A stretch of 32,600 nucleotides of DNA, from positions 1-32,600 of the IMG/VR virus record IMGVR_UViG_3300036783_000171; one strand, 5' to 3'. Position 1 is the stretch's first letter. Every line of letters starts with the position of its first letter. A model generated the notes under the pieces. It was given only the letters and a program-made list of their open reading frames with translations, ran no database searches and was not told the DNA's origin. The DNA comes from a virus (taxonomy: Duplodnaviria; Caudoviricetes). The translations under genes were made by a program, and so were the position numbers. Of the stretch, positions 2,523 through 27,428 are shown piece by piece.

Positions 2523-2530
2523 GAGTAACA

Positions 2531-2764: not shown

Positions 2765-2765
2765 G

Positions 2766-2966
2766 ATGTTCTACGGCAGGTGCAAGGTAGAGGGATGCGG
2801 ATGGGTAGCTCTCATGCACAGTAGGTTCAAAGCACAGTGCGCCTCTACCTGGCACATATATGAGGACCACCCGGACATCTGGCTAGCGCAGGTAGGCGAC
2901 CGGCCCCCGAATGACCCTGACCCCCGCGATCCATTCTTTGACATGCTCTACGGCGGCGAGAACTAG
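2766..2966 (+). CDS. Hypothetical protein with a C2H2-like metal-binding pattern
   Basis: Starts 1 nt after the previous stop; CKVEGC…HIYEDH. Confidence 0.7.
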   Translation: MFYGRCKVEGCGWVALMHSRFKAQCASTWHIYEDHPDIWLAQVGDRPPNDPDPRDPFFDMLYGGEN

Positions 2967-3027
2967 GGTCGACTACGGTCGATTAGTATTCTAGCTGCAC
3001 GGGCCGGAGCGGTACCGCAGGCGCGAG

Positions 3028-3064
3028 TAGGCCGATCCGGCTACCCTAGCCCGGATCGGCCCTA
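3028..3064. terminator. GC-rich hairpin between convergent operons (probable terminator)
   Basis: GCCGATCCGG (3031-3040) pairs with CCGGATCGGC (3051-3060), with flanking TAG/CTA. No U-tract. Confidence 0.6.
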
Positions 3065-3135
3065 TCTAGCGAGCGTGCGGCCTGCCCGCGCGGCGGGCCG
3101 GAGAGCACCGGCCGGGTACCCTCCGGTAGCCGGGC

Positions 3136-4266: not shown

Positions 4267-4280
4267 CTCACTCCATTCGA

Positions 4281-4901
4281 TTAACCACCTGGCCCAGGTT
4301 CAGGCACTAGCGGGTCGTGCGGTTCCATTCTGCTGATCATCGCGTCGTAGACCGGTATTGAGCGAGTATGCTCTAGCGGTTTCGACCATACACCCCTGAA
4401 GGGCGCGCGGTAATGACATGGCCACGAATATGGCTTCACGGCCGTGTACGCCATCATAACTATAGCGCCAGGGCGCATTTCCTCCCAGATAGACTTCTCC
4501 CAGGCAGTCTCGACATCATCATCCTTAAACGGCCGAGACGAGTAGATGATATCATACTCGGCGAATGGAGGATGTTCCTCACGAAAGTCCATGTACCGCG
4601 CGTCCACTTCAATCATGAGGGCTTTCGCGAGGTAGTCATGGCTTATCTCATAGCCGACTGCCTCCAGGCCATGGTAGCGCCCGGCCAGGTACAGCTTTGT
4701 GCCGATACCGCAGCCAGCCTCACAAAACCGTATCAGGTCCGTCCCCGCTAGCTGGTGCGTTGCGATCGACAGCATCCGGTCGAACTCAGACAGCTCTAGC
4801 GGATTCCACCGCCACATATCAGGATCTGGCTCGCCTCTTGCCTGCTCGATTGATAGCTGGGCCATCTCCATATCCCAGAGTTCCTGCCTGCTGATAAGCA
4901 T
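4281..4901 (-). CDS. Class I SAM-dependent methyltransferase, substrate unknown
   Basis: Motif I FCEAGCGIG, motif II GYEI and YDIIYSSRPF. Start placed at ATG 4901, downstream of GAGG. Confidence 0.85.
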   Translation of the reverse strand: MLISRQELWDMEMAQLSIEQARGEPDPDMWRWNPLELSEFDRMLSIATHQLAGTDLIRFCEAGCGIGTKLYLAGRYHGLEAVGYEISHDYLAKALMIEVDARYMDFREEHPPFAEYDIIYSSRPFKDDDVETAWEKSIWEEMRPGAIVMMAYTAVKPYSWPCHYRAPFRGVWSKPLEHTRSIPVYDAMISRMEPHDPLVPEPGPGG

Positions 4902-5083
4902 AATGACGATTTCCTCAGATGATCTGCCATCCTGGCTACCGGAATAAGCGCAAAGCACTCGTCGCACATCGCTACAGTAAGCGTGCCGTCCGAGCGGATA
5001 ACCTCAGCGATAACCCGTATAGGCTCATCAGCCGTGTCATCAATATCGATGACTAGCCGTACGGGAACTTCTATTGTACTCAA
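4796..5083 (-). CDS. Small hypothetical protein with CxxC…H motif; protein-like part appears to end at TTA 4901-4903
   Basis: GGGAGG SD then TTG at 5083; CDEC…DH. The ORF overruns the methyltransferase start by about 105 nt. Confidence 0.65.
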   Translation of the reverse strand: MSTIEVPVRLVIDIDDTADEPIRVIAEVIRSDGTLTVAMCDECFALIPVARMADHLRKSSLCLSAGRNSGIWRWPSYQSSRQEASQILICGGGIR

Positions 5084-5102
5084 GGTCTTTTCCTCCCAGT
5101 AG

Positions 5103-5134
5103 TGGCTGCGGCGGGTAAGAACCCGCCACAGCCA
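5103..5134 (-). terminator. 14-bp hairpin after the endolysin gene
   Basis: Minus-strand TGGCTGTGGCGGGT-TCTT-ACCCGCCGCAGCCA. It is fully paired with one G-U on the minus RNA and has a C-A mismatch on plus. Confidence 0.65.
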
Positions 5135-5145
5135 TATTGCCGCCT

Positions 5146-5937
5146 TTACGTCACCGGGGCGTTCCACGTCGCGTTCCAGGTGTCCGGCCCGACTAGCCCG
5201 TCAGATACAAGCCCCTTCTCAGCCTGGAACTGACGACACTGCCCTTCCGACTCCGGGCCGTACTCGCCATCTACGGACAGTGACCAGCCGCGCGATGACA
5301 TCTTGTCCTGCCAGACCTGGACGTCTGGGCAGGTATAGTTGTGTCCGTTCGCCGGGCCGAAGTAGTCGACATGGAGTGTCGGCGCTGAACCTCCACCTCC
5401 TCCACCACCCGAAGGTGGCGCCGGAGTACCGCCTCGTGCCAGGTCAAGTACGTAGTCCATGGGGAATCCGTTCCCACAATCGGAATGGTTGGTTCCCCAT
5501 GATCCGAGATCCCGGTGCTGACAGACACCACGACCACTTCCCTGTGCTTGCGAGGCTGTCAGCTTGGTGATCGGGATGCCGAACTTGCCAGCCTCCTCCT
5601 TCACCCAGTCGGCCGCGTTCAGCAGCATGTTGTTATGGCTGTTCTGCCACGTAGAGGTAGACCAGGAAGCAAACCCGCATAGCTCAGCCGCAACTGCTAC
5701 CGGGTTGGCATTTCCTTGGGTCCAGGCCTTGTTACCGCGCGAGACGTACTCGCCGATCTTGCCACGCTTGTCGTCGATTCCGACATGTGATGACACGCCG
5801 ACATCGCCCTGGAAGTAGTTCCCCAGGGACTCGTACGTTGTAGAACCCTCGGCCGTGTGGAGCACGATGAGGCGCACTGACGAGCCACCGCGCGACGAAT
5901 AGTTGGGGCTGGGAATCCAGACCCGCTGAAGACTCAT
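5146..5937 (-). CDS. Endolysin: N-acetylmuramoyl-L-alanine amidase (Amidase_2) plus peptidoglycan-binding domain
   Basis: SPNYSSR, IVLHTAEG, SSH, AWT, HRDL…HSDCG zinc ligands; Gly linker; DGEYGP…FQ…GL..DGLVGPDTW. Confidence 0.93.
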   Translation of the reverse strand: MSLQRVWIPSPNYSSRGGSSVRLIVLHTAEGSTTYESLGNYFQGDVGVSSHVGIDDKRGKIGEYVSRGNKAWTQGNANPVAVAAELCGFASWSTSTWQNSHNNMLLNAADWVKEEAGKFGIPITKLTASQAQGSGRGVCQHRDLGSWGTNHSDCGNGFPMDYVLDLARGGTPAPPSGGGGGGGSAPTLHVDYFGPANGHNYTCPDVQVWQDKMSSRGWSLSVDGEYGPESEGQCRQFQAEKGLVSDGLVGPDTWNATWNAPVT

Positions 5938-6227
5938 GACTGGAGCTTCCCTTCACTAACTCCAGGACCCGCGTCCCTGCGGTTCCACGGTTCCGTCTGG
6001 CGTTCGACCGGTGGCTCCGGACGTGCCCTGACCTGACGGAGTTCCGGCGCTAGGGGGTCGCGCGGAGCCTCATCCTCTTGCTTCTGTTCCATTCTGTTCA
6101 TCCTTTCTACAAAGCGCCGGTAGCGCTTCCGCTGATACATCTCCCATGCATCCAGCAGCTTCTCCACAGGAACAACAGCGAGCGCAACCGCTAGGCCCGC
6201 TATGCCCATCCAGAAGATCACTGCCAT
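5934..6227 (-). CDS. Single-TM membrane protein next to the endolysin (possible holin/lysis accessory)
   Basis: Hydrophobic N-terminus (AVIFWMGIAGLAVALAVV) with a charged tail; ATGA-coupled to the endolysin; ATG lies 6 nt after a -10 box. Confidence 0.55.
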   Translation of the reverse strand: MAVIFWMGIAGLAVALAVVPVEKLLDAWEMYQRKRYRRFVERMNRMEQKQEDEAPRDPLAPELRQVRARPEPPVERQTEPWNRRDAGPGVSEGKLQS

Positions 6228-6233
6228 GCATCG

Positions 6234-6262
6234 AGTATACTCCCCTCGCGCGGATTCGTCTA
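6234..6262 (-). promoter_or_regulatory. Sigma70/HrdB-type promoter for the lysis cassette, leaderless
   Basis: TAGACG-N17-TATACT-N6-ATG. Confidence 0.7.
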
Positions 6263-6265
6263 GCC

Positions 6266-7198
6266 CTAGAATCCGAAGACCATCAGGGCTGCTTTCGACA
6301 GCCTCCACGATCCTGAAGCTGGCGTAGCATAGGCCGTATTGGTGATTGTATGGTTCCCAGCCGAAAGCACTCCGATCCAGTGTCCTGATATAGCACTCGG
6401 GTCATTCTGTGGGACATTACGGTCACGTCCGCATTCAAACGTAGTGCCATCAACAGTAACCCTGTTGACATGCGCCAGGCTTGACTGCGTAACCTGCGTG
6501 CCGATGATGTCTGACAGAGCCGCTATCGTCATCGGCGATACGAGCGTAAAGCTGACCGTCGCCTGGTCCATCCATCCGGCAACGTCTCCGAGCGGTCCGG
6601 CCGCGTACCCGATCAGGTTGCCGCCTATCGCCGCCCACGAGTTGTTGCCATTGTTGTACGAGAAGCAGTTCCCGGTATCCACTTCGATGCCGATTGTCGG
6701 AAGCTCCGGAGCTGGATGTCCAATACCGGACAGCATCGGGAAAACTCCGCGACTAGCGAAGATCCTCTCATCGACCATGCCAGATACCGCGCCACCAGTA
6801 CCGGTTGACCAGTGGCTAATCGGTATGTCATAATTTCCCGCAGTAGTTTGCTGTAGCGGTGGCAGTCCGGGGGTTCCTGCCATTACCACTGGCTGAATTA
6901 CAGCAGGCGATGATGATGCCGTACGATTGTATCGAAGTACTAGCCTATCTGTACGGGCAGTTCCGCTGCCAGCCGGAATCGCTGTTGAGAGCGAAGCATC
7001 CGAACGCCATAGCTGCCCCTTGATGAGAACTGTTCCGGCCGACATCACGGCATTGCGACCCGAGGTATCAAGCGTCGGAACGAATGAGCTGCTGTTCGCA
7101 ACTCCACTAAGAACTCCGCAGTTGACTATGAAGTTCTCCCAGTCGGCCGTGGTTGTAAGCTGCGTGAACCCACTAGGCCGCGCGTCGTATGTAACCAT
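6266..7198 (-). CDS. Minor tail protein
   Basis: Position after the hub gene; actinophage minor-tail pattern R.DRLVLR…G.P..P.L…YDIPI…DER. Confidence 0.8.
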   Translation of the reverse strand: MVTYDARPSGFTQLTTTADWENFIVNCGVLSGVANSSSFVPTLDTSGRNAVMSAGTVLIKGQLWRSDASLSTAIPAGSGTARTDRLVLRYNRTASSSPAVIQPVVMAGTPGLPPLQQTTAGNYDIPISHWSTGTGGAVSGMVDERIFASRGVFPMLSGIGHPAPELPTIGIEVDTGNCFSYNNGNNSWAAIGGNLIGYAAGPLGDVAGWMDQATVSFTLVSPMTIAALSDIIGTQVTQSSLAHVNRVTVDGTTFECGRDRNVPQNDPSAISGHWIGVLSAGNHTITNTAYATPASGSWRLSKAALMVFGF

Positions 7199-7206
7199 TG
7201 CTACTC

Positions 7207-10200
7207 CTACTTTGTCGATAGCTTCTTTTCAAGTGCCTTTATACGATTGATAAGCTGCGCAACAATCTTGTTGTCCGAAGCCGTAGTGTCCCCGGTAACA
7301 CCGATAGTGGGAACAACATTAATAGGTGGCGTCTGCGATGCGTCAGCCGTAAGCGTTACGCCGGAAACGATGTCCGTATATGGATCGCCATTGCGCACTA
7401 CAATAGTTACCGTATCGCCAAGGTTGTAATCGCGACCATAAATCAAGTATGGCGTGTCGGTTACGGTAGTGCTCATGTACGGACCACGACCGCCACTAAT
7501 CAGCGCATCCTGCGCGGCAGCCGTTAGGTTCTTGGTGTCTGTCTCGTTGCCATTATCAATAAATGACTCAACCATATTCCATTGTGTCTTGCCAGAGGCC
7601 GTTTGAGACACGAACGTCGTCGATCCCCGGACTAGGGCATCCGTAACGGTAGCATCGGCTAGGGAGAATGAGATAGATGTCAGGTTGCCGGTATCCTCCG
7701 AGAACAATGCGGTAGAAGACAGATCGCGCGGAGTATACACGTCAAATATAATTCTGGTTCCCCTCCGCTTCACGCTGACGCCCATTCGCGTACCGCTGTT
7801 CGATATTAGCAGCCTAATCACATCAAGCAGGTTAAGGTCAACTCCCGCGCCGAACTTGGCAGTATAGTTTACAGCTGGACCGCGCCCACCATCAGCAGCT
7901 ATGGACAATAGCGTATGCCGACGATTTGAAAGCGCTCCTGGTCCAACATTAACATTAACAAGCTGCTTAATGGTTGTCTCTAGTGGGAAGTTAATCATTG
8001 CCCAGCCATCACTTTGTAGCTGAGCATTCCACGCCTTAGCCGGAGCCGGGTACACTATCCGGTTCGCGATAACCGCGAGGTAATCCGCGCCAGACAGGGA
8101 TATGAACGGACCAGCATTAGACGCGCCCGGACTACCGCCACCACTATTCGCCCCTGGAACGGAATCCAGGTATGCTGGCGTCTCACACTTTCCCCCGAAC
8201 GTAAAGAGGCCGCGCCAGTTAATGCTTATGATGAACTCACCATTAAGCGGAGCCTTCATCAATTGATTCCATAGCGCGTCCGAATACTGCGCGATAACTG
8301 TCCATGATCCTACCGTGTTATAGTAAAGCTGGGCATTAACCGAAGAATAGTTGATCATCCCTTGACTTACGAGGTTATTGTCTAGCAGCTCAACCCACAC
8401 CATTTGATCAGGAATCGTCGGAGTAGGAGCGGCAGAATTAACCCAGGCAATATAATGCGATGCCACTTCACCTGGCAGCAGGCGGCGCGGATAGATGGCC
8501 ATGTGCGCAATGCTGCCAGCATAGTACGCCGGGCCAGTACCAGAACCAGCCATGAACGTATGCCCTATGCGCCAGTAGCTCGGCGTGCCCCACGTGCTCT
8601 GGCAAGCTATGGTACTCCGCACTACACCATCACGATACAAGGACAAAGTTGAAAATCCATCGAACGTTATTGCAGCATGATGCCACTTACCACCATTAGT
8701 AGTAGTGGTATCGACGACAATGACTGATCCGCCAGTAGGTCCGTTATTCCGGCACTGTAGGGTCGTGTTGTTCTGCATGTTGACGGACTGGATATAATTC
8801 GTCGTAGAGATCCCGGAACCAGGACCCGTGCCAGCGTTGTTCTCGATGATTCCGCCGAACGAGGCAGTATTCTTGTAGAAGAATTCAATTGACCAGGAAG
8901 CACCTGTACCCGTAAGGCTCCATGCCGTAGGGTCAATTATCTCACCCGAGGAACCATCGAACGTAGCTGCCCTTGGCTGTCCCCATGGATCAGAAGTCCC
9001 GAACGTTACTCCGCCAAATACCGCGCCAGTCGAGCTAGCAGCCATCTCACGAGCGTTCTGCGATCCGGCAACATCATCTAGTGGCCAGTACCTATTCGGG
9101 CCGGACGACATAACCTGGTTCTGATACGCTAGTGACTTCGTAGCTATGGGCGGGATAGGAATTGCCGGATTTATCCAGTAGCTGTAATGAGTAGCTACCT
9201 CGTCAGATGTAATGCACCTGCTGTAGATCGCTACGTGCGCAATGCTACCGGTATACCAGCCGCCATTCCCGAACCCGGTACTCGTCCGGAATGTATGGCC
9301 AATCCTCCAGTAGTACTGATTCGGAGGCGTGGGAGGTGGCTGTGGTGCATAGGTGTTCGTGTTCGGCGCGGTACCCTGTAGAACACCATCCCGGTACAAA
9401 GACAATGTCGAAGAACCGTCGAACGTTACGGCACCGTGATGCCAATTCCCATCATTAGTCGGAGCAGAGTCGTTAACGTTAACAGCACCGTCAGCAGTAG
9501 AGTAGTCATGACCTTGGAATGTAGTACTCGCACTCATGTACGAGCCACCAATATAATTACCTGTCACGCCAGTATTGGCCGAGCTATATATTCGCCAGCC
9601 TACCGTCGCATACAAATTGGATGCTCCGCCGGTACTGGACGTCGGCTGCGTAAACCCTGCCGGAACCGCCTCTACCTGCCCGACATTCCCCGATAGCCAT
9701 ATCGCCACACGCGGACCAGAGCCAATGGCAACATTATTCACCGCAGCCGTCGCACTGCTGCCATTAGCAGCGCCGGTAAGTGGAGATGGCGCCTGCGACA
9801 TCCCTTGCATCCGAAATACCTGAGTCCAGCCAGTCGAGGCATTCCCGTTCGTCATGGTTATCGTATCACCAACGGCAAACGTCACCGGATTGTTCGACAT
9901 CTGAATCGATACGCGCTGCGTCGATCCGGTCGCGAACCAGTGAACCTGCTTGTACGTATTGCCATGGTTATCCGTCATCGCGAGCGAGCCGGTCGGCCCG
10001 GTCGCGGTATACAACACGAAGACATACTCATTAGCCACGGCCTGCGCCATAGTGGTGACCCATGATGTCACAGCCGAGAACGTCGCGTACGTCCCGGTAT
10101 AGACCATATGGACATCGTTGCCATAGTTGAACGGTACTACGGCAACCTGCGCGCCCCACACAGTAGAGGCGGCATACGAGTTGGTGAATGATGCCGTTGC

Positions 10201-10545
10201 CGGATTGGCTGAACCGGCCGCAGATCCAAGGTTGTGCTCAAGCATCCCGCCAATCGCAGCAGTATTCTTGTAGAAGAACTCCATCGACCATGGCTGGGTA
10301 ACGGCAGTGATCGCCCAGCTAGCCGAGTCAACAATTTCCCCGGAGACCCCATCGAACGTTGCCGCGCCAGGATTTCCCCACGGGTCGGTATCCCTAAGCG
10401 TAACGCCGCCATAGATGTTGCCATATGAGTTGGACACCATCTCATTAACGGTGCCTGCTCCCTGGCCATCATCTAGCGGCCAGTAACGATCGGGACCAGA
10501 ATCAAGAATGCCCGACTTGTACACATCGGATGAAACTCCTGTCAT
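7207..10545 (-). CDS. Tail protein: two LamG/concanavalin-like domains fused N-terminally to a siphovirus Gp37-like baseplate hub domain
   Basis: Two copies of RYWPLDD…ATFDG…WS.EFFYK…WHH.A.TFDG…LYRDGV…GSIAH.AIY; C-terminal YN.VGSW…YGRDYNLGDTV. Directly follows Dit by ATGA overlap. Confidence 0.85.
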   Translation of the reverse strand: MTGVSSDVYKSGILDSGPDRYWPLDDGQGAGTVNEMVSNSYGNIYGGVTLRDTDPWGNPGAATFDGVSGEIVDSASWAITAVTQPWSMEFFYKNTAAIGGMLEHNLGSAAGSANPATASFTNSYAASTVWGAQVAVVPFNYGNDVHMVYTGTYATFSAVTSWVTTMAQAVANEYVFVLYTATGPTGSLAMTDNHGNTYKQVHWFATGSTQRVSIQMSNNPVTFAVGDTITMTNGNASTGWTQVFRMQGMSQAPSPLTGAANGSSATAAVNNVAIGSGPRVAIWLSGNVGQVEAVPAGFTQPTSSTGGASNLYATVGWRIYSSANTGVTGNYIGGSYMSASTTFQGHDYSTADGAVNVNDSAPTNDGNWHHGAVTFDGSSTLSLYRDGVLQGTAPNTNTYAPQPPPTPPNQYYWRIGHTFRTSTGFGNGGWYTGSIAHVAIYSRCITSDEVATHYSYWINPAIPIPPIATKSLAYQNQVMSSGPNRYWPLDDVAGSQNAREMAASSTGAVFGGVTFGTSDPWGQPRAATFDGSSGEIIDPTAWSLTGTGASWSIEFFYKNTASFGGIIENNAGTGPGSGISTTNYIQSVNMQNNTTLQCRNNGPTGGSVIVVDTTTTNGGKWHHAAITFDGFSTLSLYRDGVVRSTIACQSTWGTPSYWRIGHTFMAGSGTGPAYYAGSIAHMAIYPRRLLPGEVASHYIAWVNSAAPTPTIPDQMVWVELLDNNLVSQGMINYSSVNAQLYYNTVGSWTVIAQYSDALWNQLMKAPLNGEFIISINWRGLFTFGGKCETPAYLDSVPGANSGGGSPGASNAGPFISLSGADYLAVIANRIVYPAPAKAWNAQLQSDGWAMINFPLETTIKQLVNVNVGPGALSNRRHTLLSIAADGGRGPAVNYTAKFGAGVDLNLLDVIRLLISNSGTRMGVSVKRRGTRIIFDVYTPRDLSSTALFSEDTGNLTSISFSLADATVTDALVRGSTTFVSQTASGKTQWNMVESFIDNGNETDTKNLTAAAQDALISGGRGPYMSTTVTDTPYLIYGRDYNLGDTVTIVVRNGDPYTDIVSGVTLTADASQTPPINVVPTIGVTGDTTASDNKIVAQLINRIKALEKKLSTK

Positions 10546-11450
10546 GCCCGCCCCCACCTATTAGACCAGCTACAAATAATGCTCGATGCCGGTGTAGCAT
10601 TCGCCATAGTAATCGTTACATTATTGGGACCTCCCAGTAGTGGCCACAGGTCGCGCGGACTGCCGATAACTAGCTGACTCCACATATTGGCACCAGTCGT
10701 CTTGTTGACAACAGACTGAAATCCGCGCTTCGTCGTTACCTGAACCTGTTGCCCGGCCGGAACCGAACTCTTCAATGACCATGTTCGCTGCGGAGAAGCA
10801 GACTTGTTCGTTATCGTCGGAGTTCCAGGACCGGTAATTAGCCAGGTCGGAAACGTCATCGACGTGCCAAGGTTATTGATTACGGTATCGCCGATAACTG
10901 CTGGTCCATTAAACGCGACCGGCAGCAACGGCAGGATACCGGCATTGGCGGTTGATATCTGATAGGTAAGACTACTCGCATTGACATCGGTCCAGTACGG
11001 GTCCGGAGTCGCGAGCGCAAACGTATACAGCGCCATGTTGTTCGCGCCGACAGTAGGAGTATCAAAACCTGAAGTTGTATACGTCGAAATCTGCCGCTGC
11101 CCGCCATTCGGCCGCGTAATTATAAGCGTTCCCGCTTTCGGAAGCTCATTACGCCGCGTAAGGAATGCCCTGATCAGGTTATCAAGAGTAGAGTAGTAAT
11201 CATTCTCCGAGTCGCTAGCCGGACGTGAAACAAGAATAGCAATGCCAATAGTGCCCGGCTGCGGAATATAGATGTTGGCAGCAGCGGTGCCATCCAGGAA
11301 CGGGATCACCTGGAACATTACCGGGAAACCCTCGATGCCGGAGATCGCCGAACAGACATACCCCCGCGACATCGTTAGATCAGACAGGTTCCAGGGATTG
11401 CCATCAGGATCAATATACGTGATGCCCAATGGTGTAGGTGGCGTAGACAT
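10542..11450 (-). CDS. Distal tail protein (Dit-like)
   Basis: First gene after the tape measure; ATPDPYW, N.G….P…ITGP, LWPL..G.N motifs. Confidence 0.85.
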   Translation of the reverse strand: MSTPPTPLGITYIDPDGNPWNLSDLTMSRGYVCSAISGIEGFPVMFQVIPFLDGTAAANIYIPQPGTIGIAILVSRPASDSENDYYSTLDNLIRAFLTRRNELPKAGTLIITRPNGGQRQISTYTTSGFDTPTVGANNMALYTFALATPDPYWTDVNASSLTYQISTANAGILPLLPVAFNGPAVIGDTVINNLGTSMTFPTWLITGPGTPTITNKSASPQRTWSLKSSVPAGQQVQVTTKRGFQSVVNKTTGANMWSQLVIGSPRDLWPLLGGPNNVTITMANATPASSIICSWSNRWGRA

Positions 11451-14400: not shown

Positions 14401-14560
14401 TCGGCATCTCATCAGCTATATGCTTACCAAGTTCCTTGCCAGCCTCGTCGCCGACCTTCTTTGATGGCTCGACAATCTGATCCCTGAGCTTTTGCTCCCA
14501 CCCGCGCGCATCCGGGACGACGCCGACCGCTACCGATCCGACAAAGATCTCTCCTGCCAT
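11450..14560 (-). CDS. Tape measure protein with C-terminal lytic transglycosylase (SLT) domain
   Basis: 1036 aa, Ala/Gly/Ile-rich with repeated FG..SPAKK units; ESGGDPNAIN.WD.NA..G.PS.GLMQ…DPLANI.AAINY; GYDTGG…GKPERVL. Confidence 0.95.
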   Translation of the reverse strand: MAGEIFVGSVAVGVVPDARGWEQKLRDQIVEPSKKVGDEAGKELGKHIADEMPKEGDDAAANFGKSYKAKLKEVLDSIPKVELNADSTEADRKVAELRAKIEELHRQDVIDPRKAVESITLLETDVKALARMSKDIKVDFNIKSALTKLQIMRDATKLELGALGGGVSGRKGPTLSGAETLIGTGAGAAGAGGTILGNIMSFFGGIKGFFGGGAGGGGGGASAAAAAASSGGGGGGLSSLMAGGFMQPAVLIPLITAAAPFIGQIVGGAIVGVLGAGLAGMGIAGAVMSGKLTGWLKDLGKQIKTFMTIIGTPFIGSLGKIFATIGKLLSPGSPFMIAMTQAGIIIAKAFTPFVTAIVKSFGQPAVAKSILAVAGAFAAILTAVTPQIAPDMNLIANSITDLATAIGKNPQAMANVFQYIVNIVNFLISAATKLANVATNIEQWDNGAAGKALGAIARHIGDIVQAILPLAALVSGAGGTPQEPGPKLPGGGVTLPKLPGGNPLLPAVPGTPQGGWQAQIGNLIKGAFSIANPPSWMKAISDQSIGNFLGGLRHGIAAHANELASLGIDMSRNIAHGVVSFWQANVTLFNDLVSIGQNIVLGIYHGILMVLDTIGTWINDHILKPFISALTNSFGIASPAKKTQPIGQSIIDGIFSGIVNALLAVGTWVDNHIFKPIINAILGAFGLGSIGTGGGGKNENTNNTSMFSIGQSIIQGLLNGMLDIFNSIHDWIGTHIYHPLVNAVIAWFGATSPAKKMIPIGRSIITGVITGMIKEGKHIGRFVADVFGGWPEAILKFVSKGLVSISSLPKKALQALGGALGVTGGAPGIAQLIGLWNKVSSSGSGVTRWSGLVSKALTMLGLPQQLVAPVLYQMETESGGDPNAINNWDINAKRGDPSRGLMQTTGSTFARYHVPGTAFNIYDPLANIAAAINYAMHVYGRNLRNNRGGIGSGKGYDTGGFLPTGVTLAYNMTGKPERVLSPAEYEAYGKGNVHNGNVYEAHFDGLTGAAIESHVRTAFHLMTLQQGNMYRQGRRS

Positions 14561-15365
14561 CAGATTCGCCCCGCCATCCGCTCGCGCACTTCATCATCAT
14601 CAAGACCGCGCAGGCGCGGGTCTAGCAGCCTGGCGTTCTCGATAGACATTACCTTACCGCGCTTTGTATTCATTCCGGGTCGGCGAACTAGCTCTGGCTG
14701 CGGAATATGCGCATTGTCGGAATGCGACATCGCGTACATCCAAGATAGCTGCCGCACTTCATCGATGAGCGCGGCAACTAGCAGCTCAAGCGGACTCCAC
14801 GGTGCCTGTGCGGAATCGCCAGCCGCCACAGCAAGCGTCTCGGCCGGAGTCGCATTCCGTATCGCAGTATTCAATGCACTCTCCGCTGGTAGGTGGTCCA
14901 CCAGTACGAGTAGCTTCCGCCAGGAAAGGCCATCACCTAGGCTGGACAGGGCTACACCGTAGTAGCGCTGTAGGTCTGCCTCTACCTCCTCCGGGAATGA
15001 TTCTGTGACCCAGAGCGCCTTCTGGATTTTCCCGTATTCAGCCTCGACTGCCTACCGCACTCGTTGAAGACTGCTTCTACCTGGTAATTGAGCAGGTCGG
15101 CATCGACCCACACTTGGAATTCCCCGTTGTCGTCGATGACTTCCCGCGCCCATGTATCCCAGTCGCCGGAAGCCGCTGCCCGCATCGCGGTAGCCGACCA
15201 CGACTTGGCATGCGCCACATGCACGATCTTGCCATCAAGGCGCACTGTTGTAGGCTCACCGACGTTCTCCTTCCGCAGGATGTCGTCGAGCTGGTCAAGG
15301 TCAAGATCGACCTGGACGTCGTCTTGGGCATCCTCGACAGGAATCCACTCGCCGTCGGTGGTCAT
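14560..15365 (-). CDS. Tail assembly chaperone, long form made by -1 frameshift
   Basis: The -1 frame after GGGAAAA reads KIQKALWVTESFPEEVEADLQRYYGV…LSWRKLLVLVDHLPAESA and stays open to the TGA overlapping the tape measure ATG. Confidence 0.88.
14982..15365 (-). CDS. Tail assembly chaperone, short form
   Basis: Lies between the major tail and tape measure genes; ends …NTGKSRRRSGSQNHSRRR. Confidence 0.88.
   Translation of the reverse strand: MTTDGEWIPVEDAQDDVQVDLDLDQLDDILRKENVGEPTTVRLDGKIVHVAHAKSWSATAMRAAASGDWDTWAREVIDDNGEFQVWVDADLLNYQVEAVFNECGRQSRLNTGKSRRRSGSQNHSRRR
15027..15033 (-). other. Programmed -1 ribosomal frameshift site G GGA AAA
   Basis: X XXY YYZ heptamer in the correct phase (ACG GGA AAA) at the canonical position. 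Confidence 0.88.
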
Positions 15366-16285
15366 GCGAAGTACCCCGACATGTCCTTGCCGTAGCCGAT
15401 GTAACGCTGGGCAACGGCGTTGGTGACAGTCGTGCCGCCGGTTACGATGTTGCCCGGGTAGAACGTGAAGGTGAGGTCGGTCATGGTGATGTCGCCCTGC
15501 TGCACCTGGTTGTTGCCGCGAGCGGTCACCTTGGCGAACGGAGCGTACAGACGCTGCCGCTTGACACCGTCGATCGAGTCGAGGATCAGGGAATACCTGT
15601 TGTCGGCCGGAGGGTCCGGGATGACGTAGACAGCCATGAAGCTGCCGATCGTCAGTGACACGCTCGGCGCGGTCGCCGTCGCCGGTACGTTCATCACGAA
15701 GCTGGTGTTCGCCGTCACGGACACGATTGTGGCGCCGGACGGGATACCTGGGCCGGACACGCCCTTGCCAACGTCCGTCGACAGGACAGCCGCGTCAGTG
15801 ACGAGCGTCTGGCCGGTCGTAGTGGCACAGGCCGAGTCAGTACGGCCAGCTACCGGCTTGAGCGGCGACGATGACCCAGGGAAGATGGACACGTCGTCGT
15901 ACAGCGCCTGGACATTCGGGTTGAACGCTTCCAGGAACACGACCTGCGCCGTCTTGACGCCGCCAGTGAGGATCGACCGGATCGGGGTAAGGACTCCAGC
16001 CGCTGGGATATCCTTGATCGTCTCGTCGAGCTTGAAGATGTACCCGGTCACGTCGGTCCAGCCGCAGCACTTGTAGCTAGCACCGGTAATGGTCGTCGGG
16101 TCCTCAAACCCGGCCGGAGCCGCGAGGTTCGGTGGGCCGACCCACACGACGACATCGCCCGCCGCGTAGAGAAGCGTGTTGTCCTTGTATGGCCCAGTAC
16201 CAGGAGCCGGTAGGCCAGTGAGCAGAGTTGGGCCGCCTGTTGTAACGTCTCGTTCGTCTACCGCTGCTTGCTTAGCAGGTGACAT
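15362..16285 (-). CDS. Major tail (tube) protein with an inserted beta domain
   Basis: Position; G+ motif CGWTDVTG, FLE.FNP.V.ALY, and YSLILDSIDG…R.Y.P…VT.RG. Confidence 0.88.
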   Translation of the reverse strand: MSPAKQAAVDERDVTTGGPTLLTGLPAPGTGPYKDNTLLYAAGDVVVWVGPPNLAAPAGFEDPTTITGASYKCCGWTDVTGYIFKLDETIKDIPAAGVLTPIRSILTGGVKTAQVVFLEAFNPNVQALYDDVSIFPGSSSPLKPVAGRTDSACATTTGQTLVTDAAVLSTDVGKGVSGPGIPSGATIVSVTANTSFVMNVPATATAPSVSLTIGSFMAVYVIPDPPADNRYSLILDSIDGVKRQRLYAPFAKVTARGNNQVQQGDITMTDLTFTFYPGNIVTGGTTVTNAVAQRYIGYGKDMSGYFA

Positions 16286-16296
16286 TTGATTTCCTC

Positions 16297-16686
16297 CTAA
16301 GGATGGACTGACATTTCGTACGATGCCGAGTAACGGACTAGATTTGGATTAACCTCCGGTAGCTGTCGCGGACTCATGATCGTGCTGACGTGCTGTATAA
16401 CTCCGTTCGATACGATGGCGCTCATCAGAGACATCATCTGTGACTGAATACCTCTCGCAGCAGCAGAGACGTTATCGACCTGGTCCTTAGGACCAAACAC
16501 ATCAATATCAATTGTAGAGCGATCAAGACCAACGTGAGCAACCGCGCCACCAGTACGCCGGATGCGCGCAGTTATCTTGGCTGGGTCGCCGTACGGCAGG
16601 ATTGTAACAAAACGGACGTTAGGGTTCTGCGGCACGAGTGCAGATATCAGCATGATTTCCGGATCGGGGAAGACTGGGTACGTCAT
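16297..16686 (-). CDS. Tail terminator protein
   Basis: FPDPE, RRTGG, IDIDVFG, RYSASY; directly precedes the major tail gene. Confidence 0.8.
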   Translation of the reverse strand: MTYPVFPDPEIMLISALVPQNPNVRFVTILPYGDPAKITARIRRTGGAVAHVGLDRSTIDIDVFGPKDQVDNVSAAARGIQSQMMSLMSAIVSNGVIQHVSTIMSPRQLPEVNPNLVRYSASYEMSVHP

Positions 16687-17006
16687 CTCTTGATCGCCCT
16701 CCCCCAGCCAAATGCCGCATCGCGAAGAGTACTGAACGGTTCCTTTCCACTGTGCCCATACTCCACAAACACAGCGTCTGGAGAGTCGTTATACACAATA
16801 GCCTCGGCGCGGTCATTCGTTGCGCCGCCATGCAAGTGCGAGCGGACATGGAAGCTTCTAATGTACCGGCCGGTATCAATTGGAGCTCTAGCCTCTGCCT
16901 TGGCCTTGATCTCCATTCCACGATCTTCCATCCGGTTGCGCATCCAGTCAGAGTTGAGCATCTTGCCAAATCCTTCATGATCAGCAGTGTACGTCGCAGT
17001 AGTCAT
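16683..17006 (-). CDS. HK97 gp10-like neck/tail completion protein
   Basis: APIDTGRY..S and A.FVEYG motifs. Confidence 0.85.
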   Translation of the reverse strand: MTTATYTADHEGFGKMLNSDWMRNRMEDRGMEIKAKAEARAPIDTGRYIRSFHVRSHLHGGATNDRAEAIVYNDSPDAVFVEYGHSGKEPFSTLRDAAFGWGRAIKR

Positions 17007-17353
17007 GACGACCCTCCCGTAATCAGCGTTACGGCAATACGCATTGGGGATACCCGCCCGGAAAACGGAGACTGCCAGGAACTTGGTGCACCAGTAACCT
17101 CGTATCGATCTCCTTTGTACTCAATAAGATCCAAAGCCGTCACGTCGGTACCGTACGGCATAAAAATTGTATCAGTCGTAGCTACCTGATCAGCGAAGAC
17201 AAGGTTCTCGGTACTTCCTGACGGCTGGAACACACACTGAACAACCTTTGTCGAAGCTTCCGAGTAGACATCATTCCCGTAATCATCGACACCGGATACC
17301 GTACGCTTGATAAGTGTCATCGTATCCGGGTACGGGAAGAACGGATAGCCCAT
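17003..17353 (-). CDS. Head-to-tail stopper
   Basis: DDYGN, FQP..S.E, D.IEY.G..YEV.G.P..W..PF. Confidence 0.85.
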   Translation of the reverse strand: MGYPFFPYPDTMTLIKRTVSGVDDYGNDVYSEASTKVVQCVFQPSGSTENLVFADQVATTDTIFMPYGTDVTALDLIEYKGDRYEVTGAPSSWQSPFSGRVSPMRIAVTLITGGSS

Positions 17354-17361
17354 GACACCTC

Positions 17362-18009
17362 CTACAGCCTTATCTTGACAGTACCGTAGCTCTTGTGGTA
17401 AGGCATAAGCACTGTCTTCATACCGGCATCGATAAGCGCAGCATTCAGGCCCGCGCCGGACGTACGCCGCATCGAGTACGAGTAGGCCCCGACAGACTCG
17501 CTCATCAGGGTAGCCGACATGGTCGGAGTCGCTAGCTCGGACGTTACCGCCGATGCCAGCACAGCTACGACATCATCAGGAACTTCAACAAATCCATGCG
17601 AGCCGGTTATCTTGAATGACCCTCCCCACCAGAATGTCTCTTCGTACCAGTACTCCGGAAGGTTAATAATCCCGGAGTAAGACGGGTTGAACACCGTTAG
17701 CTTTTCAACACCGTCCCAGTTGTACCATGTTACCGGAATATCGGCAATCCCCGGCGTTCCCGATAGAGCGATAACAGAGTCAATGCTCACTACTGGCCGC
17801 CAGGTAGTCAGCATCATGATTCCGCCATCAGCCACCATCGTCTTGGTGTCGGAATCATAGTACAGGAAATCCCGGTTGCAGTACGACCTGATGATTGCAC
17901 TGCCGTCCGAGAGCAAGCCATCGACCCGCGCGGCCTCAGTTGGATTCAGGGTGCGGCCCAGCCTCGCCGCGATATCATCCGGCGTGGCGAGACTGGGCAG
18001 CGACGACAT
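17362..18009 (-). CDS. Head-to-tail adaptor
   Basis: LAT.DDI.ARLGR.L…E..RV..LL.D.S..IR, HGF..VPDDV, SESVG.YSYS. Confidence 0.88.
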   Translation of the reverse strand: MSSLPSLATPDDIAARLGRTLNPTEAARVDGLLSDGSAIIRSYCNRDFLYYDSDTKTMVADGGIMMLTTWRPVVSIDSVIALSGTPGIADIPVTWYNWDGVEKLTVFNPSYSGIINLPEYWYEETFWWGGSFKITGSHGFVEVPDDVVAVLASAVTSELATPTMSATLMSESVGAYSYSMRRTSGAGLNAALIDAGMKTVLMPYHKSYGTVKIRL

Positions 18010-18015
18010 GGAGAC

Positions 18016-18894
18016 CTACTTCCTCTTGTCTTCGATCTCAGGCGGTTCCGTGCTGGTCTCAGCCGACGGAATCCAGCACCACGTCAGCAGGCCAGTCGGG
18101 CCAGGACCCGGCGGCTGTGCGACCAGTACCCACTTGCCCGGCAGGCCATCCTCCGGGTAGTTCGGGTCATAGTCCGGGTGCGTCACCGCGAGCGGCCACG
18201 GAATGAACCCATGGACGACAGTCCCGATATCCGGATCATCCACGAACGCCCAGTTCCCGACGTTCAGGTCCGGAACTTCCGGGTGATCCGGCAGGTTGCC
18301 CGGATCTAGGGTTGGGAGTCCCGGTTGCGGCCCAGGCGGCGTCGTATCGACCCACGGAGGTGCAACCCCGCCCCAAAACCCAGGCGGCTGCGGCTGTTGT
18401 CCAGGCGGCCCGATGTCCACATACTCGGGCGGCCTACCTCCCCAGATGCCAGGAGGCTGTGGTTGCGGCTGCGGCGGCGTGGTGTCGACCCACGGCGGCG
18501 CTGTCCCTCCCCAGAATCCCGGAGGGTTGCCCGGACCCGCGCCGGGCGGATTCGGCCAGACCACCGGCGGGATCGGGTGCGACACGGACGGCGGCGGGCC
18601 ACCGGGAGCGATCGGATGCGCCGGATATCCTGGTCCGGGCCAGACTCCCGGAGGGGGGCCACCTGGCGCAATCGGATGCGCCGGGTAGCCGGGTCCGGGC
18701 CACACCGAGGGTGGCGGACCCCCTGGTGCGATCGGGTGTGCTGGGTAGCCGGGTCCCGGCCAGACGGACGGCGGCACCGGCAGGCCCTGGTCGGGATACG
18801 GCGGCGGCCCTCCAGGTGCGATCGGGTGTTCCGGACGCCCGTGCTCACGTTCATCCAGGACCCATGCTTCAACTAGTACATAACGCTTGCCCAT
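18016..18894 (-). CDS. Proline/glycine-rich repeat protein of unknown function
   Basis: GGGAG SD then ATG at 18894 (MGKRYVLVEAW). Repeats differ mainly at synonymous positions in this frame. Confidence 0.8.
   Translation of the reverse strand: MGKRYVLVEAWVLDEREHGRPEHPIAPGGPPPYPDQGLPVPPSVWPGPGYPAHPIAPGGPPPSVWPGPGYPAHPIAPGGPPPGVWPGPGYPAHPIAPGGPPPSVSHPIPPVVWPNPPGAGPGNPPGFWGGTAPPWVDTTPPQPQPQPPGIWGGRPPEYVDIGPPGQQPQPPGFWGGVAPPWVDTTPPGPQPGLPTLDPGNLPDHPEVPDLNVGNWAFVDDPDIGTVVHGFIPWPLAVTHPDYDPNYPEDGLPGKWVLVAQPPGPGPTGLLTWCWIPSAETSTEPPEIEDKRK
18589..18828 (-). repeat. Coding tandem repeat, four HPIAPGGPPP units spaced 60, 60 and 90 bp
   Basis: Plus-strand GC(G/A)ATCGG recurs near 18608, 18668, 18728 and 18818. 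Confidence 0.85.
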
Positions 18895-18980
18895 AACAAC
18901 TCCCTGTTCGGTTGTGGGCCGGGTTGGGGCGCGGCTGCCGGTCACCCGGCAGTAGAACCGACAGCCGCGCGTCCACTGGG

Positions 18981-20183
18981 TTAGTCGTCCTTGCCGGTCG
19001 AACGACGTGTGTGAGTCGTACGGGTCGTAGTGGTCGAACGAGTGCCGCCATTGCCGGTATCATCCTCCTGAGCCCGGCTCACGGCATCTTCCCTGGCCTG
19101 CTGTGCGTCCTGCTCCCACTGCGACGTCTGGTCCTCGCCGACAGTTTCGCCCTCAGCGGTGACCGCGCGGGTACCGCCGGGGTAGGACTGGATGACGGTG
19201 ATCGGGCCTGCGGTCGGGGCAGTCGTGCCGGTACCAAGAACCGTGCCGAACGGCCACCGTTGAGTGATCGTCTTGGCCTTGTTCATGACGGTGACCGGGT
19301 TAACTGTCGCGTAGGCGAGCCGCATTGTCATGCGCATCGCCACCGCGTCCTGCTGCATCAGGTTCAGGATGACGACACCGGCGTCGTTGGAGATGACGCC
19401 CTGGTCGAACATCTTGAAGGAGATGTCGTTCCGGATGCCGATGATGGCCTTGGTGAAGTCACCAGCGAGCATGAGGGCACCAGCAGTCGGGTTGACCCAG
19501 GAGCCGTTGTTGATCTCGGACATCTTGTATCCGTACAGCATCCCTCCCGGCTTCCCCGTCATGTCCGGCTGGTAGATCGGCACGCCCTGCGCCGACCGGA
19601 TTCCGGCCAGGTTCCAGCTGATGCCCGGCATTGCGGCAAAGCCGTTCACCGTGTAGCCGGTCTGTGCCATCATTGCGCCGAGCGATGTGACGTCCTGGCC
19701 AAGGTCGACGCCGGTACCCTCGATCACGAAGTGCCCGGACTTCCCGGCTCCAGTGTAGACTGCCTCTCCCCAGGTCGCAGGCTTGTTGATGCCCCACAGG
19801 ACTGCCGAGTCGATCAGCGCGCCGACCGCCTCTGTGATGCGAGGCTGCACCTGCGACCACAACGGCACGTCCGCGTCGTCAAGGTACGCAACCGGAATCG
19901 GCACGATACAGGCCAGTTCCTCGACGACCATGATGACGTTCTGCCACGCCATCTGGGACGTCTGCTTCATGCCGGTGTCGCCACCGACCCAGTACGCCAT
20001 GGGGAGCACGTCGAGCACGGGCATCCGCTGCGTCTTGGATGAAAGGGTGGTCTTGTTCATGAGCGTGAGGGCCGCCGATGACGTCGGGGCCTCCTGGATA
20101 ATTGCCGTTGCCAGTGGCTGCGGCACGAGGGGGTCCGGCGTACCGGACGACCGGAACACACCCTCATTGTAGACGCCTGCCAT
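18981..20183 (-). CDS. Major capsid protein (HK97 fold) with a low-complexity C-terminal extension
   Basis: P.AYWV, EELA.IVPIP…LDDA, D.AVL.G..KP, GDF….IGIR.DI, NL.QQD.VA.R…R.AY; follows the scaffold gene. Confidence 0.95.
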   Translation of the reverse strand: MAGVYNEGVFRSSGTPDPLVPQPLATAIIQEAPTSSAALTLMNKTTLSSKTQRMPVLDVLPMAYWVGGDTGMKQTSQMAWQNVIMVVEELACIVPIPVAYLDDADVPLWSQVQPRITEAVGALIDSAVLWGINKPATWGEAVYTGAGKSGHFVIEGTGVDLGQDVTSLGAMMAQTGYTVNGFAAMPGISWNLAGIRSAQGVPIYQPDMTGKPGGMLYGYKMSEINNGSWVNPTAGALMLAGDFTKAIIGIRNDISFKMFDQGVISNDAGVVILNLMQQDAVAMRMTMRLAYATVNPVTVMNKAKTITQRWPFGTVLGTGTTAPTAGPITVIQSYPGGTRAVTAEGETVGEDQTSQWEQDAQQAREDAVSRAQEDDTGNGGTRSTTTTRTTHTRRSTGKDD

Positions 20184-20217
20184 TTGAGGCCCTTCCGCGC
20201 TACGTCACCCGCAGCGC

Positions 20218-20889
20218 CTATGTATTGTGGAGCAAGTTACGGAACCATTGCTCATTGGTTGTTGGCGTGGAGCCTGACGGGGCCGACCCGGCCCTGAGGG
20301 ATTCAACCGGGCGTGTACCGCCCTGCTGTTGCGGCTGGAGCTGCGGCGTTCCGCCGTTCTGCCCTTGCAGGGCCTGGATGTCAATCCCAGCATCCTTGAG
20401 CATTTGTTCCGCTATCGCCTGGGCCGTTTCCTCTATGACCTGGGCGAATAGCTCTGCCCGCTCATTGATTTCCTCTTCCGTTCCGGTACCGAGGTGCTCA
20501 ATAAGTTCGACGGGAAGGTCGTTGGCAGCAGCCGCCATCATGCGCGCGTGAATCTGCATGGCCTCATCGCGCTCAAGCTCGGCCGCTTTCTGGGCATCGA
20601 GAGCCTTCTGGAGTTCTGTCTTGTTCGCGTCTTCGATCTGCTGAAGACGCTGAGCAGCCGAGGCGTTCTGCTTGGCGCGCTGCTCATGCTTACGAGCCTG
20701 AGACTTCCAGTGAGCTAGCTGTTCAGCTAGGTCATCGTCTCCCTCGCCACCTTGGTCACCTTCCATCATGGTGCCAAGCAGGCCAGCGGCGTCACCCTCG
20801 TCTGAGCCAGCGGCACCCGTTCCAGGTGCTCCGCCAGCGTTGCCCGTTGCGGGCCCAGACCCGGTCTCTGCCGAAGACTCGCTCATCAT
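20218..20889 (-). CDS. Capsid scaffolding protein
   Basis: WK..ARKHE.RAK.N, EDANKTE.QKA coiled coil, RPVESLR.G; directly precedes the capsid gene. Confidence 0.9.
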   Translation of the reverse strand: MMSESSAETGSGPATGNAGGAPGTGAAGSDEGDAAGLLGTMMEGDQGGEGDDDLAEQLAHWKSQARKHEQRAKQNASAAQRLQQIEDANKTELQKALDAQKAAELERDEAMQIHARMMAAAANDLPVELIEHLGTGTEEEINERAELFAQVIEETAQAIAEQMLKDAGIDIQALQGQNGGTPQLQPQQQGGTRPVESLRAGSAPSGSTPTTNEQWFRNLLHNT

Positions 20890-20911
20890 ACCTCCAGTAT
20901 GCCTCTCCGGG

Positions 20912-20940
20912 AGTATATACCCTCCGGCCGGAGAAGTAAA
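20912..20940 (-). promoter_or_regulatory. Internal promoter for the scaffold/capsid genes
   Basis: TTTACT-N17-TATACT, followed by GGAGG and ATG at 20889. Confidence 0.7.
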
Positions 20941-20949
20941 GACCCCCGC

Positions 20950-21204
20950 CTAGCGGGCTTTCCGGGCCGCCGAGAGGGACTGCTCCAGTCCAGGAGCATG
21001 GCCGGGCCATCCTCCAGTCGCGTGCCGGTGTATGTTCGCACAGAGACCCTTGACCATCCCTGGTGAGACGTACTTCGACAGCGTTGTTACGCAGGCATCG
21101 AAGTCACCAGGAACTCCCCAGTGTAGCTTTGCCGCGCCAGGACCACTAGTCCAGTACTTGAGCAGCTGGTCCGGCATGTTTGTATGTTCAGGACTCTGCA
21201 CCAT
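20950..21204 (-). CDS. Small conserved phage head-region protein
   Basis: GGAGG SD. The YW..G.GAAK..WG.PGDF..C…L.KY…GLCA..H..ATG.WPG pattern is one I recognise from actinophage head-region proteins. Confidence 0.75.
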   Translation of the reverse strand: MVQSPEHTNMPDQLLKYWTSGPGAAKLHWGVPGDFDACVTTLSKYVSPGMVKGLCANIHRHATGGWPGHAPGLEQSLSAARKAR

Positions 21205-21584
21205 AACATTGCCTCCACAATAACAGTTCCGTACCCGACTGTACTTCTATTGTCAGAAGAATCAACAAGATCAGCTCTCCACCAAAGCGCACCTACCGTC
21301 TGATTATCTGCACTCGGAATATGGAATGTAGACATGCACGTTCCAGTACTATCTGGATTGTCAATAACGTCAGCTGTATACTTCTTGGTTGTCGGGTCCG
21401 AGTCCGGCGTCTCGCGCTCCGGCTTGTAGTAGAACTCAGACGACGCCCCGGTGCCGTCCGAGACATTCGGGTAGTACACATTGACCACTACATCATTGCC
21501 CTGTGGGAAGTACAGCACCATCATGGCATTCGGCGTAGTATCAACTACGACACTAGCCCCGGAAACATCAAGAGGCGTCGTCAT
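21087..21584 (-). CDS. Beta-rich (Ig/BppU-like) hypothetical virion protein; protein-like part appears to end at TTA 21204-21206
   Basis: TGATG-coupled start; QGND…WWR.D.V…T..YG…VEA pattern. The ORF overruns the next start by 118 nt. Confidence 0.7.
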   Translation of the reverse strand: MTTPLDVSGASVVVDTTPNAMMVLYFPQGNDVVVNVYYPNVSDGTGASSEFYYKPERETPDSDPTTKKYTADVIDNPDSTGTCMSTFHIPSADNQTVGALWWRADLVDSSDNRSTVGYGTVIVEAMLWCRVLNIQTCRTSCSSTGLVVLARQSYTGEFLVTSMPA

Positions 21585-21877
21585 CAGGAACCTCCAGTCG
21601 TAAGTGTCCCGTCCGGCTTCCAGGTCTTCGGAATGTCATCTGACCATCCCTTAGTCTTCGCCACTCCCATGATGTACCTCCGGACCTTGGCCCGTTCCTC
21701 GGGCGTGTTCGGCCGCGCCCGGCCGACTGCCGATATGGCCGCTGACAGCGAGTTCGACGGCCCGGTACGCGAATTGATCGGGAATCGCGGCGAGTCACTC
21801 TGGTTCTGCTGCGACGGGGGCATTGCCTGCTTGTTCTTGAGGAGGTTCCGCAGAGCCTCCTCCTTCAGATCCGACAT
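21584..21877 (-). CDS. Small basic head-region protein
   Basis: GGAG SD. The FPI…L..AI.AVGRA…VRRYI…A…G….IP..W pattern resembles a module seen fused to phage prohead proteins. Confidence 0.7.
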   Translation of the reverse strand: MSDLKEEALRNLLKNKQAMPPSQQNQSDSPRFPINSRTGPSNSLSAAISAVGRARPNTPEERAKVRRYIMGVAKTKGWSDDIPKTWKPDGTLTTGGS

Positions 21878-24166: not shown

Positions 24167-24175
24167 AGCCCCACC

Positions 24176-25843: not shown

Positions 25844-25852
25844 CCAAGCCTC

Positions 25853-27422: not shown

Positions 27423-27428
27423 CAATAA

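Follow-up and report, generated by a model that had tools for sequence, protein, structure and literature searches.

The codon UUA very probably acts as a termination signal in a tailed phage represented by IMG/VR record IMGVR_UViG_3300036783_000171, from which a 32.6-kb fragment of 57.7% GC (the window, i.e. the whole stretch of DNA analysed) was studied. TTA is excluded from the interior of genes and is interchangeable with the true stop codons at gene ends, both in the phages and in chromosomes of the bacterial genus Trebonia. In Trebonia the SPF sequence of release factor 2 (RF2) is replaced by SKY, and U33 of tRNA-Leu(UAA) is replaced by C. We think it probable that UUA is a fourth, and probably weak, stop codon in the clade of phages to which the window belongs, where it would be read by the altered RF2 of a host that is likely to be of the Trebonia group. 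The release-factor alteration applies to the phage only if this link to the host holds.

TTA is absent from the interior of the window genes

No TTA is present among the 10,404 codons (701 of them for leucine) of the 39 curated genes in the window, which occupy positions 37..32549 on both strands. The number expected, calculated as the count of TTG multiplied by the ratio of CTA to CTG, is ~35, and the probability of finding none is ~1e-15. All the other leucine codons are used (TTG 60, CTA 129, CTT 148, CTC 141 and CTG 223), and TTA is the sole sense codon that is not. The initial annotation of the window had reported no in-frame TTA inside the called genes, and the count bears this out. Out of frame TTA is common, with 168 occurrences in the +1 frame and 35 in the +2 frame; by strand there are 205 and 231. 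The loss of TTA is therefore codon-specific, and avoidance of the DNA motif is ruled out as its cause.

Two genes of the window end in TTA

The initial annotation placed in-frame TTA at three positions. These, like the genes and junctions described in this section, are on the minus strand. Those at 4903-4901 and 21206-21204 stand. The TTA at 4897-4895 is not a second case at the first of these locations; it lies past the first TTA, within methyltransferase coding sequence in another frame. Both terminal TTA codons overlap the next ATG as TTATG (4903-4899 and 21206-21202), so that the A of TTA is also the A of ATG, just as had been described.

The TTA at 4901..4903 ends orfA (4904..5083), encoding a CxxC protein of ~60 amino acids that has no match in Pfam or PHROG. 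Its start is placed at TTG 5083 from the presence of a GGAGGA site, with GTG 5167 as an alternative. Homologues of 58-66 amino acids align to the 4904..5083 part, and 7 of 7 stop within a few residues of its end at TAG or TAA. In one of them (L103) the ending is TAATG, and this opens the same MLSRQELW gene as that found downstream of orfA. Reading the TTA as leucine would give 35 extra residues. The downstream gene (4281..4901) starts at the overlapping ATG and encodes a methyltransferase-like protein of 206 amino acids, the match to Methyltransf_23 being weak (E 0.0011, below the cut-off).

The TTA at 21204..21206 ends orfB (21207..21584), a head-region gene of no known family with a 126-amino-acid product. 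It overlaps the ATG of an 84-amino-acid gene (20950..21204; phrog_6439, E 2.9e-24) that has its own GGAGG. The orthologous ends (n = 26) comprise 14 TGATG, three TAATG, three TTATG (the window, L002 and L049) and six other true stops. In the column-exact alignment the window reads GAG GCA ATG TTA TG where L001 reads GAG GCT GTG TGA TG, and L002 and L049 have TTA TG. At the protein level four homologues (117-127 amino acids) finish at the aligned V; another (P0002, 141 amino acids) runs on with L-W, as a table 11 reading of TTATG would give. Leucine at this TTA would add 39 residues. The window TTA codons themselves are known from assembled sequence, and the TTATG of orfB recurs in the independent relatives L002 and L049.

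Five other junctions are TGATG, at the positions given in the initial annotation (11450, 14560, 21584, 26704 and 27153). That between the tape measure and distal tail genes (11448..11452) serves as a comparison case, and another (21582..21586) joins orfC to orfB. For the remaining three the relatives show exchange with TTA. The junction of the tail chaperone with the tape measure gene (14558..14562) is TTATG, TAATG or ATGA in relatives; that after the small terminase gene (26702..26706) is TTATG in L017 and L023; and that between a zinc-finger gene and the small terminase gene (27151..27155) corresponds to TTATG after the zinc-finger gene in L004, L005, L019 and L021. The TTATG near 18894 (18896-18892) is preceded by just 15 open codons, so that no gene ends there; its lack of an upstream reading frame had been noted correctly.

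TTA as a gene end across the phage clade

A total of 264 query proteins were compared with 224 phage loci, ten long records among them, and the clade was defined as the 171 loci with a marker identity of at least 60%, dereplicated by context. Within the clade 294,089 aligned codons contain six internal TTA (731 expected) and seven internal true stops. With 26 query proteins as the basis of the count, TTA closes 55 of 1,053 genes, 38 of them as TTATG. If these terminal codons were read as leucine the products would be extended by 1-244 residues, i.e. by random tails. In more distant loci internal TTA numbers four against eight expected (45-60% identity) and six against one (<45% identity), and the distant phages L524 and L537 have TTA inside genes.

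Enrichment of in-frame TTA at −1 start overlaps, a check proposed in the initial annotation, is present. At such overlaps supported by a Shine-Dalgarno (SD) sequence, with ATGA set aside, TAA occurs 60 times, TGA 53 times and TTA 28 times, and all other NNA codons together account for two cases. Junctions of the form TCA|TG are ATGA in 14 of 14 cases, and UCA is ruled out as a further stop by its 1,658 interior uses. TTATG was found 13 times after an HNH gene in independent assemblies.

The initial annotation had suggested that UUA might be a stop that couples or fuses neighbouring genes. The stop, and coupling through TTATG, are supported by these data; fusion is not. The corresponding junctions of relatives are plain TGATG or TAATG, and an ATG that could act as a matching take-off codon for a ribosomal hop precedes TTA in only two of 28 TTATG junctions, which rules out gene fusion by hopping as the rule.

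Inserts opened by TTA in relatives

At six sites in relatives, none of them in the window, a short insert opens with TTA and closes with a codon that matches the codon preceding the insert. Three phages have such an insert in the terminase gene (CTT-TTA-C-CTC once and CTT-TTA-GC-CTC twice), and a fourth has CTT-TGA-CTT at the same site. The others are in the major capsid gene of L049 (ATT-TTA-C-ATC), a PHP gene (GGT-TTA-CTC-GGC) and a RuvC-like gene (GGA-TTA-GGA). The terminase inserts follow a K-Y-L motif, where a stop plus repeat is present in four of 59 distinct relatives (three TTA, one TGA) and 55 are plain; in the window the large terminase reading frame (24176..25843, minus strand) is uninterrupted. 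Ribosomes may hop at these inserts, and their existence upholds the connection with bypassing in a Streptomyces phage drawn in the initial annotation. The TGA version indicates that at the terminase site UUA can be exchanged for a stop read by RF2. Inspection of the seven hop sites, using folds without shuffles, revealed neither an SD sequence nor a hairpin common to them.

RF2 and tRNA-Leu(UAA) in Trebonia

The SPF motif of RF2 reads the second and third bases of the stop codon. RF2 has SKY at this position in 39 of 39 matches found among 44 Trebonia genomes. Across the order (251 genomes) SKY was found in three genomes and SP(F/Y) in 238 (including the unpublished G028). SKY genomes outside Trebonia are G011, G159 and G182; the counts of TTA ends for SKY given below come from Trebonia only. 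SKY aligns to S205-P206-F207 of Escherichia coli RF2, i.e. P is changed to K and F to Y. In addition W144 is changed to F near the tip of helix 5, and RF1 keeps its PVT.

The tRNA-Leu(UAA) of Trebonia has a short arm and is among the lowest-scoring tRNAs in two genomes. Its anticodon loop is CC-TAA-AA (i.e. C33) in 30 of 30 loci read. Thirteen relatives have CT-TAA-AA (U33), though these were retrieved using U33 patterns. Patterns that assume U33 had also suggested that the host lacks this tRNA, which is ruled out by the presence of the gene in 39 of the 44 Trebonia genomes. U33 is near-invariant in tRNA, one listed exception being G33 in a Candida tRNA that reads a leucine codon as serine (PMC5041475). 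C33 extends beyond genomes with SKY. The motif occurs in 253 of 401 genomes (including the unpublished G370), this being a 12-nt motif with a visible background, and direct observation of the C33 tRNA in two SPF genomes excludes the idea that it marks only the SKY clade.

We note that the tRNA-Leu(UAA) of Streptosporangiales (L173, L266-L277, L308-L337) has a short variable arm and a length of ~75 nt, and that those of Kitasatospora (L172, L175) are long-armed. Large tRNA arrays, with 13-29 genes seen, are present in several Trebonia genomes (L261, L262, L181, L185, L197 and L204); no tRNA-Leu(UAA) was found in the array stretches read.

TTA at gene ends in Trebonia chromosomes

An 800-kb sample of five Trebonia genomes (755 called genes, 21,567 leucine codons) contains no TTA in the deep interior of genes, six within the first 30 codons and 18 at gene ends. 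Five of the six early TTA codons precede the first Pfam domain and are likely to lie before the true start. For comparison, ATA occurs 166 times in deep positions and 31 times at ends, and CTA 365 and 68 times. Two U33 control genomes (G016 and G038, the latter seen to have SPF) have five TTA deep, five N-terminal and one at an end, several of them inside Pfam domains. The difference from Trebonia in deep and end positions is significant (Fisher p 1.4e-4). Five SPF genomes with the C33 motif, in two of which the tRNA was seen directly, have no deep and no terminal TTA in 336 genes; compared with the 18 ends in 755 genes of Trebonia this gives p 0.003.

Alignment of orthologues indicates that these terminal TTA codons take the place of stops. 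DUF3043 proteins end at one column with TAG (20), TGA (5), TAA (4) or TTA (1). DAHP synthase genes end with TGA (15), TAG (6), TTA (5) or TAA (4), YceD genes with TGA (5) or TTA (1), and epoxide hydrolase genes with a true stop (17) or TTA (2). Since these four families were chosen for having TTA in one genome, one case in each is circular. Over 95 orthologous Trebonia loci, with 7,160 leucine codons, TTA closes 10 of 354 genes and shortens none. Roughly half of the Trebonia DAHP synthase loci (L414-L443) have a conserved CCCGAACG motif after the stop, which may favour TTA there.

Taken with the controls, three states are seen: U33 with SPF, where TTA is a leucine codon; C33 with SPF, where it is nearly unused; and C33 with SKY, where it is found at gene ends. 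These would fit a stepwise capture of the codon, and the states may have arisen in this order.

The host of the phage

Machinery for decoding UUA was sought in the phages themselves. Neither the window nor 43 phage loci yielded a tRNA, and no RF-1 domain (PF00472) was found in five of five near-complete genomes. Phage-encoded decoding machinery is thereby ruled out for the phages searched, and the machinery is likely to be that of the host.

The amidase endolysin of the window (5146..5937, minus strand; Pfam Amidase_2 and PG_binding_1) was used to scan GTDB, giving 27 loci. The closest matches to the catalytic domain are in assemblies of Trebonia (69%, in a phage tail region), Streptosporangiaceae (66%), Casimicrobiaceae (63%) and Acidimicrobiaceae (55%). 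RF2 has ISKYD in the Streptosporangiaceae, the Trebonia and a third lysin-match assembly and MSPFD in the Acidimicrobiaceae, and RF1 is normal. The similarity of the lysins suggests that the host may be of the Trebonia group, and this is the weakest part of the scheme. Weak DNA matches in 16 of 44 Trebonia genomes gave no CRISPR link at the six loci inspected.

The gene at 3136-4266 (minus strand), beyond the lysis and methyltransferase genes, encodes a GH12 glycoside hydrolase that looks secreted and contains a PT-rich linker; GH12 was dropped as a host marker after a single 36% match in one of five genomes. One of the lysin loci (L135) is a contig of 72% GC whose lysin is 66% like that of the phage. 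It has no tailed-phage genes matching the window and a P-loop ATPase lies nearby, which suggests that it is another kind of element.

A probable fourth stop codon and its alternatives

In the scheme that we regard as probable, the C33 tRNA would decode UUA poorly, and the codon would leave coding sequences. RF2 with SKY would then capture the emptied codon as a stop. At TTATG, as at TGATG and TAATG, the ribosome would terminate and then start again at the ATG that overlaps. Slow termination at UUA would allow some relatives to use it, interchangeably with UGA, as a pause for short matched-codon hops. The last and weakest step is that the phage would infect the Trebonia group. On balance we also lean towards a wider reading, in which Trebonia and near genera made UUA a stop codon in two steps that both persist among relatives, and their phages took over the code and use UUA and UGA interchangeably as stop-hop sensors of RF2 activity in terminase and other genes. 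The data from Trebonia point to a standing change of code with an altered RF2, and the conserved C33 tRNA leaves room for conditional read-through.

A number of observations weigh against a UUA stop read by the altered RF2. Of the 55 TTA ends in the phages, 38 are TTATG, and among the 17 that are not, nine have a true stop no more than four codons away; those of Trebonia are mostly free-standing, and some are in frameshifted stretches (L210, L220, L225). The serine of the RF2 motif is kept in 39 of 39 Trebonia sequences, when the organellar change hits that serine. The tRNA-Leu(UAA) gene is kept, at least 85% conserved, in 39 of 44 genomes, and the organelles lost theirs. Three relatives have internal TTA of the substitution type (V to L in L122, F to L in L061 and L093). 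L122 and L061 also hold an internal true stop and the TTA of L093 is 14 codons from the contig end, so that a fair reading of all three is noise, though they may reflect rare decoding as leucine. Hopping within the major capsid gene of L049 would need high efficiency. Concerning the host, similar lysins are also present in the Casimicrobiaceae and Acidimicrobiaceae assemblies, and the amidase domain was found in one of 44 Trebonia genomes and in no other among the 251 genomes of the order. A terminase search of GTDB gave 14 pattern matches, none of which is a relative, and so no prophage link, and no CRISPR array was present at the six loci inspected of 15 short DNA matches in Trebonia.

It is possible, if unlikely, that UUA is simply unassigned. 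A poor tRNA, for example in a host with C33 and SPF, would leave the ribosome stalled at a hungry codon; drop-off, rescue or near-cognate release would follow, tolerated only at gene ends, where an overlapping start helps. The predominance of TTATG among the phage ends is consistent with this, as are the existence of C33 and SPF genomes nearly devoid of TTA and the indirect nature of the link to the host. The hop sites also resemble that of phage Hau3, where bypass is ascribed to missing charged tRNA (PMC10732093). Yet terminal TTA is absent from the genes of the C33 and SPF genomes and present in those with SKY, and TGA substitutes for TTA at the terminase hop site. Moreover, ribosomes that stall at a codon no tRNA reads are often subject to tmRNA rescue, with proteolysis (PMC10732093), and the upstream product would then be destroyed.

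We regard as rather improbable a switch like that of bldA, in which UUA would be a stop in one state of the host and leucine in another, with tails, fusions or hops following the supply of tRNA. The conservation of the C33 tRNA gene suggests that it is probably functional, and the hop sites in terminase, capsid, PHP and RuvC-like genes, together with the three substitution-type TTA codons, could be accommodated. The read-through tails are, however, random in length and not common to relatives, and the scarcity of matching take-off codons at TTATG again argues against it. Streptomyces coelicolor has TTA inside 147 genes (PMC4255298), while TTA is absent from the deep interior in the Trebonia sample. 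UUA read as leucine inside specific genes, the hallmark of bldA control, was found in neither the window nor the clade nor the Trebonia counts.

That TTA is an ordinary rare leucine codon is highly improbable and largely refuted. Its terminal occurrences would then stem from stop-loss mutation, from errors in sequencing or from a spacer rich in T ahead of the ATG, and the tails would be tolerated. In favour are the single base that separates TTA from TGA and from TAA, the TTATG at 18894, a start that no gene precedes, and the fact that the window TTA codons were seen in assembled sequence. Against it, other one-step changes (TCATG with a tail) were never found, internal TTA numbers six where 731 are expected, the same TTATG recurs in independent assemblies, as after the HNH gene, and the distant phages L524 and L537 do have TTA inside genes.

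Other features of the window

The gene set of the window includes a DnaE-type polymerase, lysin, tail, head, terminase, helicase and primase. The closest cultured match to the terminase is 51% identical (Corynebacterium phages), and there are many uncultured relatives at 64-88%. The polymerase (243-2522, plus strand) lacks a PHP domain, and relatives have a separate upstream PHP gene (L122:12506-13441). The primase and helicase are separate overlapping genes (29703-28588 and 30683-29664, minus strand); L124:5382-7601 is a single Prim-Pol gene of 740 amino acids. The tail chaperone pair (15365-14560, minus strand) has the usual G/GT arrangement, with a GGGAAAA site near 15030 where a −1 shift links the first frame to the second. 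A proline-rich repeat protein with no family match is encoded directly after the major capsid gene (18016-18894, minus strand), and a basic Lys/Ala-rich protein between the small and large terminase genes (25853-26704, minus strand). In relatives a TET-associated glycosyltransferase, Thy1, NT5C and methyltransferases (L122:301-1119, L104:7117-7953) hint at modified DNA.

Comparison with known systems

An organellar code in which UUA is a stop is listed as NCBI table 23. UUA stops accompanied by an altered RF2 have been described in labyrinthulean mitochondria and in peDinoflagellate plastids, the latter termed the first case outside mitochondria (PMC12574857). As in these organelles, UUA is found here only at gene ends where homologues stop, and the codon-binding region of RF2 is altered. 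The present case differs in concerning a free-living bacterial genus and a clade of phages, in an RF2 that keeps its serine and has the next two residues changed (P to K, F to Y), and in the retention of the cognate tRNA gene, with C33, in Trebonia. TTA ends 2-5% of genes here as against a third to a half there (PMC12574857), and UCA stays a serine codon.

In our literature search, covering main texts and few subscription journals, no UUA stop of a bacterium or a phage came up, nor any account of the code of Trebonia. The main text of a 2026 survey of tRNA in 42,109 genomes makes, in the parts cited, no mention of Trebonia, Streptosporangi- or SPF (PMC13092985). In the publications found, mitochondria and plastids are the only settings of a UUA stop; here the feature belongs to a phage clade and apparently to a free-living bacterial genus. 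If correct, this would be a bacterial case in which the release-factor motif can be named, an intermediate survives (C33 tRNA alongside normal RF2) and one species, Trebonia kvetii, is described. Models of codon capture, and the rules by which the second base of a stop is recognised, would become directly testable. A release factor that naturally acts on a sense codon would also become available, and ~2-5% of the genes in these genomes and phages would be given wrong ends by table 11.

The actinobacterial setting, the singling out of UUA and an atypical tRNA-Leu(UAA) are all shared with the bldA system of Streptomyces (PMC4255298, PMC10732093), which is possibly limited to Streptomycineae (PMC4255298). 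In Streptomyces, however, the interior of genes does contain UUA, which is decoded as leucine late in growth (PMC4255298, PMC10732093), whereas here the interiors are empty, stops are replaced and RF2 is altered. The Streptomyces phage Hau3 and two prophages have UUA gaps of 7 and 10 nt (PMC10732093). The inserts in the relatives are likewise short, opened by TTA and found in terminase, being 6-9 nt compared with 7 and 10 nt, and the take-off codon is repeated at the insert end. Unlike Hau3 (PMC10732093), there are none in the window, the site is another one, a TGA in one relative suggests a stop-hop, and capsid, PHP and RuvC-like genes are also affected.

The stop-to-sense phages of Crassvirales also use a non-standard code; the change here is in the opposite direction, and no tRNA or release factor was found in the phages. 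The closest parallel for the tRNA is tRNA-Ser(CAG) of Candida with G33, where again the reassignment of a leucine codon accompanies the loss of U33 (PMC5041475). There the change is from leucine to serine in a yeast; here it would be from leucine to stop, with C33.

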